Notes under the pieces: generated by a model
Databases searched by the model: none
What the model was told of the DNA's origin: nothing
What the model saw: the letters and a program-made list of their open reading frames with translations, nothing else
Shown: piece by piece, positions 1,463 to 6,328 of the stretch
Position numbering within the stretch: position 1 is the first letter of the stretch
Layout of the letters: each line of letters begins with the position of its first letter
Position numbers and translations under genes: made by a program
DNA from: a virus
Lineage: Duplodnaviria; Heunggongvirae; Uroviricota; Caudoviricetes
Virus record (IMG/VR): IMGVR_UViG_2579778894_000010
DNA: 6,498 nucleotides
Direction: 5' to 3' (one strand)

Positions 1463-1950
1463 TAAGCCCCCACGTAATTCCCTGACAGATACCACTCTTC
1501 ACCCGATGCAGCGCGCTTGCTGCTTTTCCGTAAACACCGCTCACGACGCGCAAGAAAATTGTTTCGCTCTTGCTGGGAGTGGCTTTCACGGAATGCCGCC
1601 ATCCACACCGTTGCAGCACGACGGTATAAGCCCCTGGACTCCAGTTCTTCCGCCTGGCGAGTCAGGCACAAAATCACCCGGGGATCGTTAGTGCCGACAT
1701 AGAAATTGCGCACAGGTCTGGATTCACGAACTGGTTGCGGTTCCGGCTCCTGCGGTATCTCAGTCAGCCGCGGGAAATGTCTGCGTGTATCCCCTTCACA
1801 ACGGTGAGCCACACGCCCACTCTGACGTAACTTGCTTGCTGACTGCAGAACGCGCTGTCGTGAGTAACCTGCAAAAGCATCCGCAATGTCTCCGGAAGTA
1901 CACCCCGGATGGGCTTCAATGAATTTCTGAACGTCATTCAAAAGACTCAT
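1462..1950 (-). CDS. PerC-like transcriptional regulator with N-terminal extension
   Basis: C-terminal half (RQAEELESRGLYRRAATVWMAAFRESHSQQERNNFLARRERCL) matches the PerC/Pch-type pattern (GLWRRAA..W ... RR..C) as I recall it. ATG at 1950..1948 lies just after the upstream TGA (1953-1955) with a G-rich SD-like sequence; the track start at 1956 is GTG. Confidence 0.6.
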   Translation of the reverse strand: MSLLNDVQKFIEAHPGCTSGDIADAFAGYSRQRVLQSASKLRQSGRVAHRCEGDTRRHFPRLTEIPQEPEPQPVRESRPVRNFYVGTNDPRVILCLTRQAEELESRGLYRRAATVWMAAFRESHSQQERNNFLARRERCLRKSSKRAASGEEWYLSGNYVGA

Positions 1951-3827: not shown

Positions 3828-4028
3828 TTATCCATTAGATTTTTCATAAAGCTCAGGTTTAAATGGCAACCGTCCGCAAGTTCTATATGCAGCTTCTGCT
3901 GCACGTCCTTTTGGAATTAACTGGCCCGGACGGTTTCGCCACTGATAAACGGCTTCAGTTGTTATGCCGAAAAAAGCAGCAACTTTCTCAATACTGCCGA
4001 AGTAGCTTTCGATATCGTCAGTTGTCAT
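3828..4028 (-). CDS. cro: Cro-type repressor (P22 Cro-like)
   Basis: 66 aa, divergent from the cI-like gene. HTH segment FGSIEKVAAFFGITTEAVYQWRN resembles P22 Cro as I recall it. Strong SD GGAGGG 5-10 nt upstream of ATG 4028. Confidence 0.8.
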   Translation of the reverse strand: MTTDDIESYFGSIEKVAAFFGITTEAVYQWRNRPGQLIPKGRAAEAAYRTCGRLPFKPELYEKSNG

Positions 4029-4125
4029 ACGCCCTCCAAACTAAGTTTTGTTAGATGCTAATTACAAATCTATCTTTGGTCAATAAAAACTAAGATTACT
4101 TAGCGATTAAAGAAATGGTGCTCCT
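4029..4125. promoter_or_regulatory. divergent immunity promoter/operator region (oR-like; pR toward cro, pRM toward cI)
   Basis: Two 14-bp dyad sites of form CTAA-N6-TTAG: 4041-4054 (CTAAGTTTTGTTAG) and 4090-4103 (CTAAGATTACTTAG). Minus-strand candidate pR: -35 TTGACC, 17-nt spacer, -10 TAGCAT, placed so the 4041-4054 site overlaps the transcript start. Confidence 0.6.
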
Positions 4126-4752
4126 ATGGAAACGGTTGGTCAGCGTATAAAAGCTCTGAGAAGAGTTACCAGAACGTCCCAGAAAGAATTGGGTAAATTT
4201 TGTGGAGTAAGCGACGTTGCTGTGGGGTACTGGGAGAAAGACATCAATACCCCTGGCGGGGAGGCACTTTCGAAATTAGCGAAGTTCTTCAATACGTCAA
4301 TAGATTACATTCTTTACGGTGCTGAGTTTGAAGGCAAACTCGTCACAAACATGCGCAGAGTTCCTGTAATATCGTGGGTTCAGGCTGGGCAGTTTACTGA
4401 GTGCAGGGCAGCAGAAGTGTTTAGTGAAGTGGACAAGTGGGTAGATACATCATTAAAGGTTGGTGATAACTCATTTGCATTAGAGGTTAAAGGTGACTCC
4501 ATGACTAACCCTAATGGCCTCCCAACAATACCAGAAGGCGCAACAGTGATTGTAGATCCAGATGCAGAACCTCGTCATGGAAAAATAGTCATCGCTCGAC
4601 TTGATGGAACAAACGAAGCTACAGTAAAAAAATTAGTCATCGATGGCCCTCAAAAGTTTTTAGTGCCATTAAATCCTCGGTATCCCAACATCCCTATCAA
4701 TGGTAATTGCCTTATCATTGGTGTAGTCAAAGGAGTTCAATACGAACTCTAA
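4126..4752 (+). CDS. cI: cI/C2-type prophage repressor (XRE HTH plus S24 LexA-like autopeptidase domain)
   Basis: 208 aa. N-terminal HTH (QKELGKFCGVSDVAVGYWEK); C-terminal S24 signatures: catalytic Ser in GDSM, Lys in EATVKKLV, and a cleavage-site-like AG; overall resembles P22 C2. Confidence 0.9.
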   Translation: METVGQRIKALRRVTRTSQKELGKFCGVSDVAVGYWEKDINTPGGEALSKLAKFFNTSIDYILYGAEFEGKLVTNMRRVPVISWVQAGQFTECRAAEVFSEVDKWVDTSLKVGDNSFALEVKGDSMTNPNGLPTIPEGATVIVDPDAEPRHGKIVIARLDGTNEATVKKLVIDGPQKFLVPLNPRYPNIPINGNCLIIGVVKGVQYEL

Positions 4753-4764
4753 GACCTCTCTTCT

Positions 4765-4797
4765 CTAACTAAGGCACCGAACCAAGAAAAGTTTGGT
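4765..4797 (+). terminator. rho-independent terminator downstream of the cI-like gene
   Basis: Stem CACCGAAC (4765-4772) / GTTTGGTG (4781-4788), 8 bp with one G-U, 8-nt loop, followed by TTTTCTCTT. Confidence 0.55.
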
Positions 4798-4824
4798 GTT
4801 TTCTCTTGTCATGATAACTAAGTT
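4796..4824 (+). promoter_or_regulatory. candidate pL/oL-like element: operator copy overlapping a sigma70-like promoter
   Basis: AACTAAGTTAAGTTAGAT (4806-4823) matches the oR site AACTAAGTTTTGTTAGAT (4039-4056) at 16 of 18 positions. It sits inside -35 TTGTCA (4796-4801), 17-nt spacer, -10 TAGATT (4819-4824) on the plus strand. Confidence 0.4.
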
Positions 4825-4917
4825 AAGTTAGATTTTATATCAAAGATAACGAACAGGCAGGACGCCCACGAAGTAGCCGCCTGGGGCATATGAAGTCCAG
4901 GATGATTCGTTAGCAAC

Positions 4918-4940
4918 AAAAAAGCGCCCTACAGGACGCT
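4918..4940 (-). terminator. rho-independent terminator for the minus-strand orphan gene
   Basis: On the minus strand: AGCGUCC-UGUA-GGGCGCU stem-loop (7 bp, one G-U) followed by U6 (plus-strand A-run 4918-4923), about 40 nt after the stop at 4980. It is strand-specific: the same position is a C-A mismatch in plus-strand RNA. Confidence 0.5.
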
Positions 4941-4979
4941 TAGCTCTTTAACAATCTGGATATCCACAACAGTAGTAAT

Positions 4980-5471
4980 CTACAGATTGCCGTTAAGTTT
5001 TCTGGACAACTCCTCAATGGATGGAGGCGATACGTAATCCGGATTTTTATTCATCAGAAACTTATTTTCACAGTGGAGGCACCTGCTTTTATGAAAAAGC
5101 TCATCTTCGCTAACCGGGAATGGTTGAAGTATCGATACTATCTTTTGTCCAAAACATTTTGGGCAAAGATGCATGGTTATGCTGCCACCGTTCACGATTA
5201 CCTCCTTCGAGTATACAAAAGTACCCGACTCAAGTTGGTTAAGGATATAGCCTTCCGTCTGAGCCTCAAAGTTTTCGAATTCTGCAATTTTAGCTTTGAG
5301 AGAAGCATTTATTTCTTGATAAGAGCCCACCAGTTCAACGAGAGACACGCATTCGCGCTGAATAGACGCAAGCTTTGAGTTCAGCTCACCAATAGCCGCA
5401 TTTACTTCAGCTTGAGTTTTTGCCTCGTTCATTAGTTTTGCAATCTGGGCTGTTTCACGAATAGCCGTCAT
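4980..5471 (-). CDS. orphan coiled-coil / C4 zinc-ribbon protein (about 163 aa); candidate moron
   Basis: Predicted start ATG 5471..5469 (MTAIRETAQIAKLMNEAK...); the track ORF extends to 5759 but the extra N-terminal 96 codons look like non-coding read-through. N-terminal half is heptad-like and Ala/Glu/Lys-rich; C-terminal half has CPKC-x21-CLHC. By eye it is AT-rich and convergent with cI. Alternative GTG start at 5495. Confidence 0.6.
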   Translation of the reverse strand: MTAIRETAQIAKLMNEAKTQAEVNAAIGELNSKLASIQRECVSLVELVGSYQEINASLKAKIAEFENFEAQTEGYILNQLESGTFVYSKEVIVNGGSITMHLCPKCFGQKIVSILQPFPVSEDELFHKSRCLHCENKFLMNKNPDYVSPPSIEELSRKLNGNL

Positions 5472-5509
5472 TGCTGCCGTTAATTCAGCGATCACATTGA
5501 ATACTCTTA

Positions 5510-5555
5510 TTGTTGTTGGGGATATCCAGATTAACCGAATCCTTGTTGTTGGGGA
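5510..5555. repeat. two exact 13-bp direct repeats (TTGTTGTTGGGGA) spaced 33 bp, upstream of the orphan gene
   Basis: Copies at 5510-5522 and 5543-5555, lying 40-85 bp upstream of the predicted start at 5471. Confidence 0.6.
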
Positions 5556-5782
5556 ATAACCAGGTCCACCTCGCCTGATGTGGCTAAAAGCAGGCACATA
5601 ACAGCTAAGTATTTTCAACCAGAGAGAATCCTTAGCGTTGTGGTGAATGCGGCTCAGCGCACGCGGGTTAAGGTTGAGGCTGACAGTCGACCTTCTGTGG
5701 ATACCCACCCGCCTGGTGTGCAACCTTCGCCAGGCACCGGGAGGCACCCGGCACCACAACTTTATGCTGTGTGTAGTCCTGG

Positions 5783-5828
5783 CGGTACCAGTTTGTACCC
5801 TTGCTTCCGGCTGGTACCGTCCTTTTTT
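5783..5828 (+). terminator. terminator-like hairpin followed by a T-run (plus strand)
   Basis: Perfect 9-bp stem CGGTACCAG (5783-5791) / CTGGTACCG (5811-5819), 19-nt loop, then TCC TTTTTT (T-run 5823-5828). Confidence 0.45.
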
Positions 5829-5829
5829 G

Positions 5830-5916
5830 CAAAACAGAGAAGAGCATCACCGGACGACGGGCTCATAACCCAATCCATCCGGGCGGCTGCCACCGCAGGT
5901 GTTCTTCTCTGTTTTG
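5830..5916. repeat. 14-bp perfect inverted repeat enclosing a 59-bp GC-rich segment
   Basis: CAAAACAGAGAAGA (5830-5843) and TCTTCTCTGTTTTG (5903-5916) are exact reverse complements; the enclosed sequence contains further short stems such as CCGGG/CCCGG. Confidence 0.55.
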
Positions 5917-5965: not shown

Positions 5966-6328
5966 ATGGCTAGCGAACGCAGTACTGATGTGCAGGCATT
6001 TATCGGGGAGCTGGACGGCGGCGTATTTGAAACCAAAATCGGCGCAGTTCTCAGTGAGGTCGCTTCCGGTGTGATGAACACGAAAACCAAAGGGAAGGTC
6101 TCACTCAATCTGGAAATCGAACCGTTTGATGAGAACCGTGTGAAAATCAAACACAAACTCTCATATGTTCGCCCAACTAACCGCGGGAAAATTTCCGAAG
6201 AAGACACCACCGAAACGCCGATGTATGTCAATCGCGGTGGTCGCCTGACTATTCTGCAGGAAGACCAGGGACAATTACTGACTCTTGCCGGTGAACCTGA
6301 CGGAAAACTCCGCGCAGCAGGTCGTTAA
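5966..6328 (+). CDS. hypothetical protein (120 aa) in the first-leftward-gene (N) position
   Basis: ATG 5966 preceded by SD GAGGAG (5953-5958) at a 7-nt spacer; the track ORF start at 5801 is an upstream extension through GC-rich non-coding sequence. No Arg-rich N-like motif and no family recognised. Confidence 0.65.
   Translation: MASERSTDVQAFIGELDGGVFETKIGAVLSEVASGVMNTKTKGKVSLNLEIEPFDENRVKIKHKLSYVRPTNRGKISEEDTTETPMYVNRGGRLTILQEDQGQLLTLAGEPDGKLRAAGR

Follow-up and report, generated by a model that had tools for sequence, protein, structure and literature searches.

A diverged Rip1-type gene with a sieB-type leader in the early region of a lambdoid Escherichia coli prophage

Ring interacting pore 1 (Rip1), reportedly described by Patel et al. 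in 2026, is the closest described relative of the gene that is the subject of this analysis, a minus-strand coding sequence within a 6,498-nucleotide (nt) stretch of phage DNA (IMG/VR virus record IMGVR_UViG_2579778894_000010), referred to below as the window. Rip1 is a prophage-encoded, single-protein defence that is non-toxic alone, and the mutations by which phages escape it have been located for Pseudomonas phages in the portal and for coliphages in the small terminase (PMC13434031, PMC12908700). Twelve Rip1 subunits encircle the 11-mer terminase ring, which is touched by the C-terminal half of the protein, and an amphipathic helix is found at the N-terminus; the assembly is a pore, associated with dye release from liposomes and with cell puncture, and homologues are widespread across proteobacterial prophages (PMC13434031, PMC12908700). 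The window gene is, as judged from its sequence and predicted fold, a new, diverged enterobacterial member of this family and no orphan.

Three further systems provide points of comparison. Lambda rexAB also supplies a prophage-expressed abortive-infection function beside the repressor that acts on the membrane, as the window gene would, but rexAB shares its transcript with cI and is found upstream of pL, whereas the window gene is convergent with cI, lies downstream of the predicted pL, and encodes a single unrelated protein with a leader and a terminator of its own. In hok/sok-type mRNAs, which encode a membrane-damaging protein, the 5' and 3' ends pair by folding back (fbi pairing); the window mRNA, predicted to be closed by a long-range 5'-3' helix, would resemble them by mechanistic analogy only, there being no sequence relation and no Sok-like gene identified. 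The exclusion gene sieB of lambda and P22, finally, shares with the window gene a homologous upstream module, an antisense position in the pL operon and the expression pattern expected of a prophage moron, but the two proteins are unrelated, the mechanism of SieB is different and poorly understood, and it is for P22 sieB that antisense control has been demonstrated. Ranade and Poteete (1993) reportedly mapped the P22 sieB promoter, that of lambda being found by homology, and are said to have described how the antisense RNA sas of superinfecting P22 switches sieB translation. The sas RNA that superinfecting P22 makes, and by which sieB is controlled, is 105 nt long (PMC12197685).

Gene model, family and fold

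The gene and its flanks, which together form a cassette, comprise the following features.

4980 to 5495, minus strand: coding sequence of a 171-amino-acid (aa) protein of the Rip1 family, with a GTG start at 5495 and its stop codon at 4982-4980
5496 to 5602, minus strand: conserved leader, with the sieB-type module, two CCCCAACAACAA motifs, the 5' arm of an inverted repeat and the Shine-Dalgarno sequence
5595 to 5566, minus strand: 30-nt sieB-type module GCCTGCTTTTAGCCACATCAGGCGAGGTGG, the first 30 nt of the leader
5554 to 5543 and 5521 to 5510, minus strand: the two CCCCAACAACAA motifs of the leader
5507 to 5532, minus strand: 5' arm of the inverted repeat, AATCTGGATATCCCCAACAACAATAA, in the 5' untranslated region (UTR), its end lying within the Shine-Dalgarno AAGAG
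4953 to 4978, minus strand: 3' arm of the inverted repeat, TTACTACTGTTGTGGATATCCAGATT (mRNA strand), 26 nt in the 3' UTR
4914 to 4941, minus strand: intrinsic terminator, AAGCGTCC-TGTA-GGGCGCTT and then TTTTTGTTG

The original prediction, made from the DNA alone, had recognised no family for the protein, a claim that is overturned by matches to phrog_1244 and to a solved Rip1 structure; the homology searches and structure prediction that it proposed as a check have been run, and both point to Rip1. In PHROGs, the window protein falls into phrog_1244 ("unknown function") with an E-value of 9e-60, and HK446 gp037 (Rip1), HK630 HkaP, Pseudomonas JBD30_030 and the window protein are all full-length members of this group (E <= 1e-50). 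A phmmer search against PDB sequences gave a single specific match, 9oox_L, 'ring interacting pore 1 (Rip1)' (E 2.7e-7), in which residues 14-150 of the query align with residues 28-159 of the chain and both CxxC pairs are aligned. The entry 9oox is the cryo-electron microscopy structure of Rip1 from Escherichia phage HK446 in complex with the small terminase of phage T6. When a profile of 25 relatives was used, the match to this chain reached an E-value of 1.3e-19 and paired profile positions 5-151 with chain residues 15-160, covering ~146 of 164 residues, and BLASTP against HK446_037 yielded 27% identity (E 4e-11). The predicted fold leads to the same structure: the AlphaFold2 (AF2) model, built from the alignment of relatives (predicted local distance difference test score 85.8), consists of helices at residues 2-24 and 28-79 followed by a six-stranded domain that bears the Cys pairs, and a Foldseek search of the PDB with this model retrieved only 9oox (chains M and L; E 6.7e-7, probability 1.0, template-modelling score 0.73 on the target, root-mean-square deviation 3.4 over 120 columns, 28% identity), the next match having an E-value of 0.4. 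Sequence similarity, fold, an architecture that combines an amphipathic helix with two CxxC pairs, and a stand-alone gene in a prophage, four traits of the Rip1 family, are found here.

The likeness to HK446 Rip1 includes length (171 against 164 aa), a helical N-terminal half, a C-terminal half of beta/zinc-ribbon type that contains two CxxC pairs, and a stand-alone gene that is antisense in a phage operon and carries the 30-nt sieB-type leader module. The two differ in sequence (~27% identity) and in position, since the HK446 copy is antisense directly after N and the window copy lies directly after pL, beside cI. HkaP, a further phrog_1244 member (28% identity by tblastn, E 3e-13), is also antisense in the pL operon and has the same leader module, but in HK620 and HK630 is flanked by hkaQ/N and cIII, has a different C-terminal spacing and lacks the flanking inverted repeat; in HK620 it is annotated as a 'putative superinfection exclusion protein'.

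The minus-strand open reading frame (ORF) that had been predicted to end at 4980 is real and uninterrupted, but its start had been set at ATG 5471, which yields 163 aa, and GTG 5495 is most likely the true start. It is preferred because of the start called by the Prokaryotic Genome Annotation Pipeline (PGAP; WP_000559922.1), the N-termini of the family, which read M-I-A-E-L-S/T-A-A-M in all relatives, and a Shine-Dalgarno AAGAG at 5508-5504 on the minus strand, 8 nt upstream. ATG 5471 corresponds to codon 9, where several relatives have I, L, Y or F in place of Met; together with the PGAP call and the N-termini of the relatives, this lack of conservation speaks against it as the start.

Within the protein, the two CxxC pairs noted in the original prediction as CPKC-x21-CLHC hold, since C111, C114, C139 and C142 are invariant in the family and align with the Cys pairs of HK446, but the spacer between them is x24 and not x21. 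The proposal of a heptad-like N-terminal half agrees with the AF2 model, in which this half is helical. Residues 7-30 are Ala-rich and amphipathic, with a hydrophobic moment of 0.40-0.44; no transmembrane (TM) segment is predicted in the window protein, where the maximum Kyte-Doolittle mean over 19 residues is 0.85. Fifteen alignment columns are invariant, the four Cys among them, and catalytically irrelevant positions vary. Conservation in the family is highest in the N-terminal half, and variation is greatest in the stretch that separates the Cys pairs; we infer that the conserved N-terminal half would be the effector and the variable C-terminal half a diversifying sensor. Scans of the window protein with Pfam, NCBIfam and PADLOC returned nothing above threshold, and the Pfam coiled-coil matches (TMF_TATA_bd, HAUS5 and others), all below threshold, were treated as composition artefacts of long helices. 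The SieB family is absent among the Pfam, PHROG and NCBIfam matches of the protein, which is predicted to be soluble.

Copies of the gene are found in 650 of the 5,426 complete E. coli genomes (~12%), O157:H7 included, with an intact, full-length ORF in 645 of them, and represent two alleles (at least 99% and ~94% identity). Two deposited phage genomes, PhiR49_1 and PhiR29_1, for which E. coli ECOR13 is given as host, also carry it, and full-length relatives are found in many enterobacterial genera, a distribution that, taken with the E. coli count, places the feature far beyond chance. The relatives sit in prophages or phages, and all those examined lie antisense inside a phage operon. A peptide-pattern scan of the genome collection returned just 10 loci. 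The superfamily as a whole comprises 2,728 clusters (50% identity) at E <= 1e-3 and 995 at E <= 1e-10; the subfamily of the window itself numbers 21 clusters at E <= 1e-30.

The antisense slot and its leader

The window represents the early part of a lambdoid prophage of E. coli and is 100% identical to NZ_CP066032.1, in which the prophage is integrated at the tRNA-Arg (argU) site, beside fimZ. Its map is that of lambda reversed, so that "leftward" early transcription corresponds here to the plus strand. The region between the repressor and the cassette contains the following features.

4126 to 4752, plus strand: cI-like repressor with helix-turn-helix (HTH) and S24 domains (Pfam Peptidase_S24 1.8e-27, HTH_3 1.3e-9; PGAP 'LexA family protein')
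about 4770 to 4807, plus strand: terminator-like hairpin (-13.4 kcal/mol) and then a U-rich tail, between the cI stop and pL
4806 to 4834, plus strand: pL-like promoter TTGTCA-17-TAGATT, from the promoter scan, a match to the consensus
4818 to 4831: repressor operator CTAAGTTAAGTTAG, overlapping the pL-like promoter

The operator motif CTAAG-N4-STTAG is found only at 4041 and 4090 (oR, between cro and cI) and at 4818 (oL), which amounts to six strand-hits against 0.42 expected; the oR pair spans window positions 4041-4103, and a single operator of this form makes up oL. Since the cassette has this third operator and the promoter on its left, the Rip1-like gene is placed antisense inside the leftward transcription unit, downstream of the predicted pL/oL and with yfdP and later plus-strand genes beyond it, and transcription from the pL-like promoter would cross the entire cassette in antisense. 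In relatives that lack the cassette, the first leftward genes begin in the same slot. The hairpin at ~4770-4807 would end the cI transcript, in a manner analogous to HK620 tIMM.

Several statements of the original prediction bear on this arrangement. Convergence with cI stands, the S24/HTH repressor being on the plus strand, and so does a minus-strand terminator belonging to the gene itself, for which the terminator scan and RNA folding give a stem at 4941-4922 (8 bp, five of them G-C, with a loop of 4) followed by TTTTTTGTTG up to 4914; it is kept in most cassettes of the window type and seen in 13 loci of other genera. The gene had been placed next to the repressor and against leftward transcription, both of which are borne out, but also between the repressor and the leftward operon, whereas it lies downstream of the predicted pL, inside that transcription unit. 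Its supposed AT-richness against the flanks applies to the right flank only: GC content is 0.428 in the gene and 0.568 in region 5600-5900, but 0.435 in cI, 0.433 in cro and 0.423 in the left intergenic region.

Antisense placement recurs among the relatives in varied surroundings. The Pseudomonas homologue is antisense between the genes for the small and large terminase subunits, and a relative from Citrobacter converges with cI and runs antisense to xis and int. In the O157:H7 genome, the unit 4943-5603 is found at ~94% identity in a Rac-like prophage, beside racR, with unrelated flanks. In other E. coli strains, flanks identical to those of the window enclose instead an ECs1072-family gene, a gene for a ClpX-type zinc finger with a small ORF, or a lone small ORF. 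By such comparisons the slot is a cargo hotspot, and it matches in position the slot of the exclusion gene sieB in lambda and P22. A Salmonella prophage (L012, 4001-4516) carries a gene with the same leader and trailer and 75% protein identity, antisense right after cro in the rightward operon. In two E. coli strains (L009 and L011, ~1735-1805, minus strand), the slot holds an 81-aa minus-strand ORF (MTFDEKELDNAINK...) after a sieB-type module and hairpin; the PGAP annotation has there a 91-aa ORF of the opposite strand instead, which may be a strand mis-annotation.

The promoter and/or the 5' UTR probably lie within the leader (5496-5602), the first 30 nt of which link the gene to sieB. By blastn, this module lies directly upstream of lambda sieB (34394-34428; coding sequence 34482-35036, antisense between ral/orf28 and N) and of P22 sieB (11401-11435), and it is also found directly upstream of HK446 Rip1 and HkaP; the string GTGCCTG(T)CTTTTARCCACRTCAGGC..GGTGG precedes lambda sieB, P22 sieB and the window gene. 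On this resemblance the window gene can be said to occupy a sieB-type expression slot. A second scan located the module ahead of at least 40 different small phage ORFs (loci L027-L265). In the non-window types, a hairpin follows the module, its 3' half often including the Shine-Dalgarno sequence, and the stem covaries strongly (GCTGG/CCAGC, ACTGG/CCAGT, TCTTGG/CCAAGA, CCTTTTA/TAAAAGG, TTCTCG/CGAGAA); the 57 distinct non-window leaders yield 33 different predicted stem pairs. The HK446 leader has two CCCCTACAG hairpins and is structured (z -2.35), with a sequestered Shine-Dalgarno sequence, whereas the window leader has the CCCCAACAACAA motifs and the 5'-3' inverted repeat instead; the HK446, HK630 and JBD30 copies are without a window-type inverted repeat.

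This inverted repeat, of 26 nt and with arms that are 85% complementary, exactly brackets the coding sequence. Across 13 loci of eight other genera, protein identity is only 45-75%, yet ~100 nt upstream and ~60 nt downstream, which take in both repeat arms and the terminator, are nearly invariant; across genera, leader and trailer are better conserved than the protein. The arms are conserved in the Salmonella, Citrobacter and O157 loci, and folding of the whole mRNA pairs the 5' arm with the 3' arm at a probability of ~1.0 for the versions from E. coli, Salmonella and Citrobacter, in a predicted helix of ~20 bp with a duplex energy of -26 to -28 kcal/mol. Among the 13 loci no compensatory change between the arms was seen, and uncompensated changes occur in L022, L024, L025 and L026; the pairing of the arms is accordingly a prediction of the folding model. 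An invertible DNA switch was rejected, because an inverted-cassette query found no place covered to at least 80% in the 5,426 E. coli genomes and the native arrangement was found in 372. Ends of a transposon or of a miniature inverted-repeat transposable element are unlikely, since conservation continues past both arms, for ~70 nt at the 5' arm and ~35 nt at the 3' arm, and no convincing target duplication was seen.

Regarding the leader by itself, a search for an Rfam family returned none, even at E 10, and RNAalifold on window-type leaders gave a weak structure (-8.97 kcal/mol, covariation -0.26); as single-sequence folding did not exceed shuffles either, a strongly structured RNA was rejected for leaders of the window type. 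A model with three helices (GCCTG/CAGGC, CCAC/GTGG and ATCCT/AGGAT) has four double-change pairs against 1.0 +/- 0.9 in shuffles, a value matched in 2 of 500 of them, which makes its support suggestive only. The 30-nt module can be read either as an RNA element or as a sigma-70 promoter whose -10 is extended (TTTTCA-N18-TGgTATNCT).

The same frame of leader and trailer surrounds other cargo. An exact 20-mer from the leader is found in at least 120 IMG/VR contigs; the gene that follows it at a fixed distance is Rip1-like in 100 of 122 cases, and the trailer (3' arm) comes after 115 of the 122 cassettes, irrespective of cargo. Most non-Rip1 cargo belongs to two types, an ECs1072-family gene and a Pro-rich/two-TM mini-operon, both of which are candidate defence or exclusion genes. 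The ECs1072-family cargo (NCBIfam NF033230) encodes 148-151 aa within the same frame, and the mini-operon consists of a Pro-rich peptide of 26-33 aa, a two-TM protein of 150-166 aa and a second Pro-rich peptide; loci with such alternative cargo include L008 (1979-2413), L029, L044 and L083, as well as L141 and L036. Assignment of the two-TM cargo to SieB was rejected for want of Pfam support.

On account of this variety of cargo (Rip1-like, ECs1072, two-TM with Pro-rich micro-ORFs, SieB and dozens of small ORFs), the frame might be viewed as a portable cassette, common to a guild of lambdoid phages, for the expression of defence cargo, with a sas-like RNA as a kin "password" and a fold-back or RNase III switch, a speculative reading that we regard as rather unlikely. 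The frame is always antisense in an early operon, so that an incoming or induced carrier would make RNA complementary to the shared leader. If the reading is true, a shared antisense leader RNA could silence all resident cassettes together, and the ~20-bp 5'-3' helix of the window-type frame could provide a pore-forming gene with a fold-back or RNase III switch.

Proposed function and competing explanations

Taken together, these observations point to a Rip1-type defence. The window protein, prophage-encoded and harmless alone, would during superinfection bind a ring-shaped phage oligomer, the small terminase or the portal, through its C-terminal zinc-ribbon/beta domain; approximately 12 copies would assemble around the ring, and the N-terminal amphipathic helices would form a pore in the inner membrane, so that the infected cell would die before the phage matures. 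We consider such a ring-triggered pore, leading to abortive infection, to be probable. The original prediction had guessed at a defence or exclusion cargo, and this guess gains support from the full-length homology to Rip1, from the cargo-hotspot nature of the slot and from its correspondence to the sieB slot.

Regulation would follow the sieB pattern. In the lysogen, the gene would be expressed from its own sieB-type leader and transcription would stop at its own terminator; upon induction, or upon infection by a kin phage with the same cassette, leftward RNA complementary to the whole mRNA would be made, and this antisense RNA would shut the gene down, as sas does for P22 sieB. Silencing by leftward read-through is suggested by the recurrent antisense placement and by the sieB/sas precedent of P22, and control of the window gene by antisense RNA from pL is proposed on that precedent. 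This regulatory model, in which expression in the lysogen is followed by silencing through read-through, is put forward as a reasoned hypothesis. The combination of Rip1-type defence, sieB-type expression in the lysogen and antisense shut-off is the explanation that, overall, we hold to be likely.

Several points weigh against it. Identity to the characterised Rip1 of HK446 is just ~27%, we know of no member of the window's subfamily of 21 clusters that has been experimentally tested, and PADLOC 2023 has no model for this family. The window-type leader alone folds no better than its shuffles (z +1.09), and the need for shut-off on induction, that is, the notion that the prophage's own terminase or portal would be a trigger, is conjecture.

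The low identity also leaves room for a member of the Rip1 family with a diverged function, in which the C-terminal zinc-ribbon would recognise another phage or cellular ligand, or the protein would have a nucleic-acid-binding or regulatory role in place of pore formation. Such divergence would be in keeping with the variability and indels of the segment between and after the CxxC pairs, with the size and diversity of the superfamily and with weak, sub-threshold zinc-ribbon matches to RNA polymerase subunit P and to ECs_2282 CxxC. It is nevertheless distinctly unlikely, given that sequence and fold alike match the solved Rip1 collinearly over the full length, that the helical N-terminal half is the most conserved part, as expected of an effector module, and that the slot and the antisense layout equal those of HK446 Rip1.

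The position of the Pseudomonas-phage homologue between terminase genes, and the fact that the triggers of Rip1 are late morphogenetic proteins that the prophage also makes itself (PMC13434031), could indicate instead that the protein serves the lytic cycle of its own prophage, as a lysis-timing pore triggered by its own terminase or portal rings. The gene, however, invariably runs antisense to the surrounding lytic operon and ends at a terminator of its own, which is the layout of a moron expressed in the lysogen and not of a lytic gene; other cargo can occupy its slot, whose counterpart in lambda and P22 holds the exclusion gene sieB; and dedicated lysis genes, essD and rrrD, are located elsewhere in the reference prophage, all of which makes this role very unlikely. 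That the ORF is a decaying or non-functional remnant of a defective prophage, as might be suspected from the pseudogenes of the reference-genome prophage and the IS679 within its integrase, is scarcely credible in view of the ORF's intactness in hundreds of E. coli genomes and its presence in PhiR49_1 and PhiR29_1, of the invariant columns with their four Cys, and of the strongly conserved regulatory flanks.

The Rip1-type reading supplies a likely function, pore-forming abortive infection, for a "hypothetical protein" found in ~12% of complete E. coli genomes, and the diverged subfamily adds material on how Rip1 proteins recognise different terminase and portal rings. The regulatory frame may be of greater importance than the gene itself, as Rip1 homologues, lambda and P22 sieB and many small genes have one leader module and one antisense slot in common; the 30-nt module may mark the moron or defence cargo of prophages and could help to find more of it. 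The shared module also links Rip1 expression to antisense control of the sas type, so far seen in P22 only, and makes it possible to test how a prophage escapes death from its own terminase-sensing defence. The shared frame of leader and trailer is the part most worth following up.

Neighbouring features of the early region

On the minus strand, the window carries, in order, RusA, a LexA-like protein, Dam methylase, PerC, an O-like replication protein, DUF4222, a cII/YmfL-like protein and a P22-type Cro. The features with a bearing on the immediate neighbourhood are the following.

3828 to 4028, minus strand: P22-type Cro
right of the cassette, plus strand: frameshifted ymfH-like ORF
5966 to 6328, plus strand: yfdP, followed by yfdQ, yfdR and yfdT in the reference genome

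At 5607-5830 on the plus strand, directly adjoining the cassette and overlapping the frameshifted ymfH-like ORF, a sub-threshold match to the Rfam family STnc100, a prophage small RNA (sRNA), was obtained (40.3 bits where the gathering score is 47, E 2.8e-6); STnc100 is reportedly related to the PasD sRNAs (bioRxiv 10.64898/2026.05.13.724894). When positions 4700-5900 were used as a query, a match of any kind was found in 3,044 of the 5,426 E. coli genomes, and most of the partial matches among them come from sub-segments in this part of the window, such as 5780-5900.

An Rfam match to mir-5880 in the region of the O-like replication gene was set aside as spurious. In this gene, at ~2400-2650 on the minus strand, the protein has a repetitive stretch, DPSKSDASKSDPSKFDASKSG, and overlapping ORFs on both strands of the same segment likewise translate to repetitive peptides, a pattern that suggests iteron-like DNA repeats of an origin located inside the gene.

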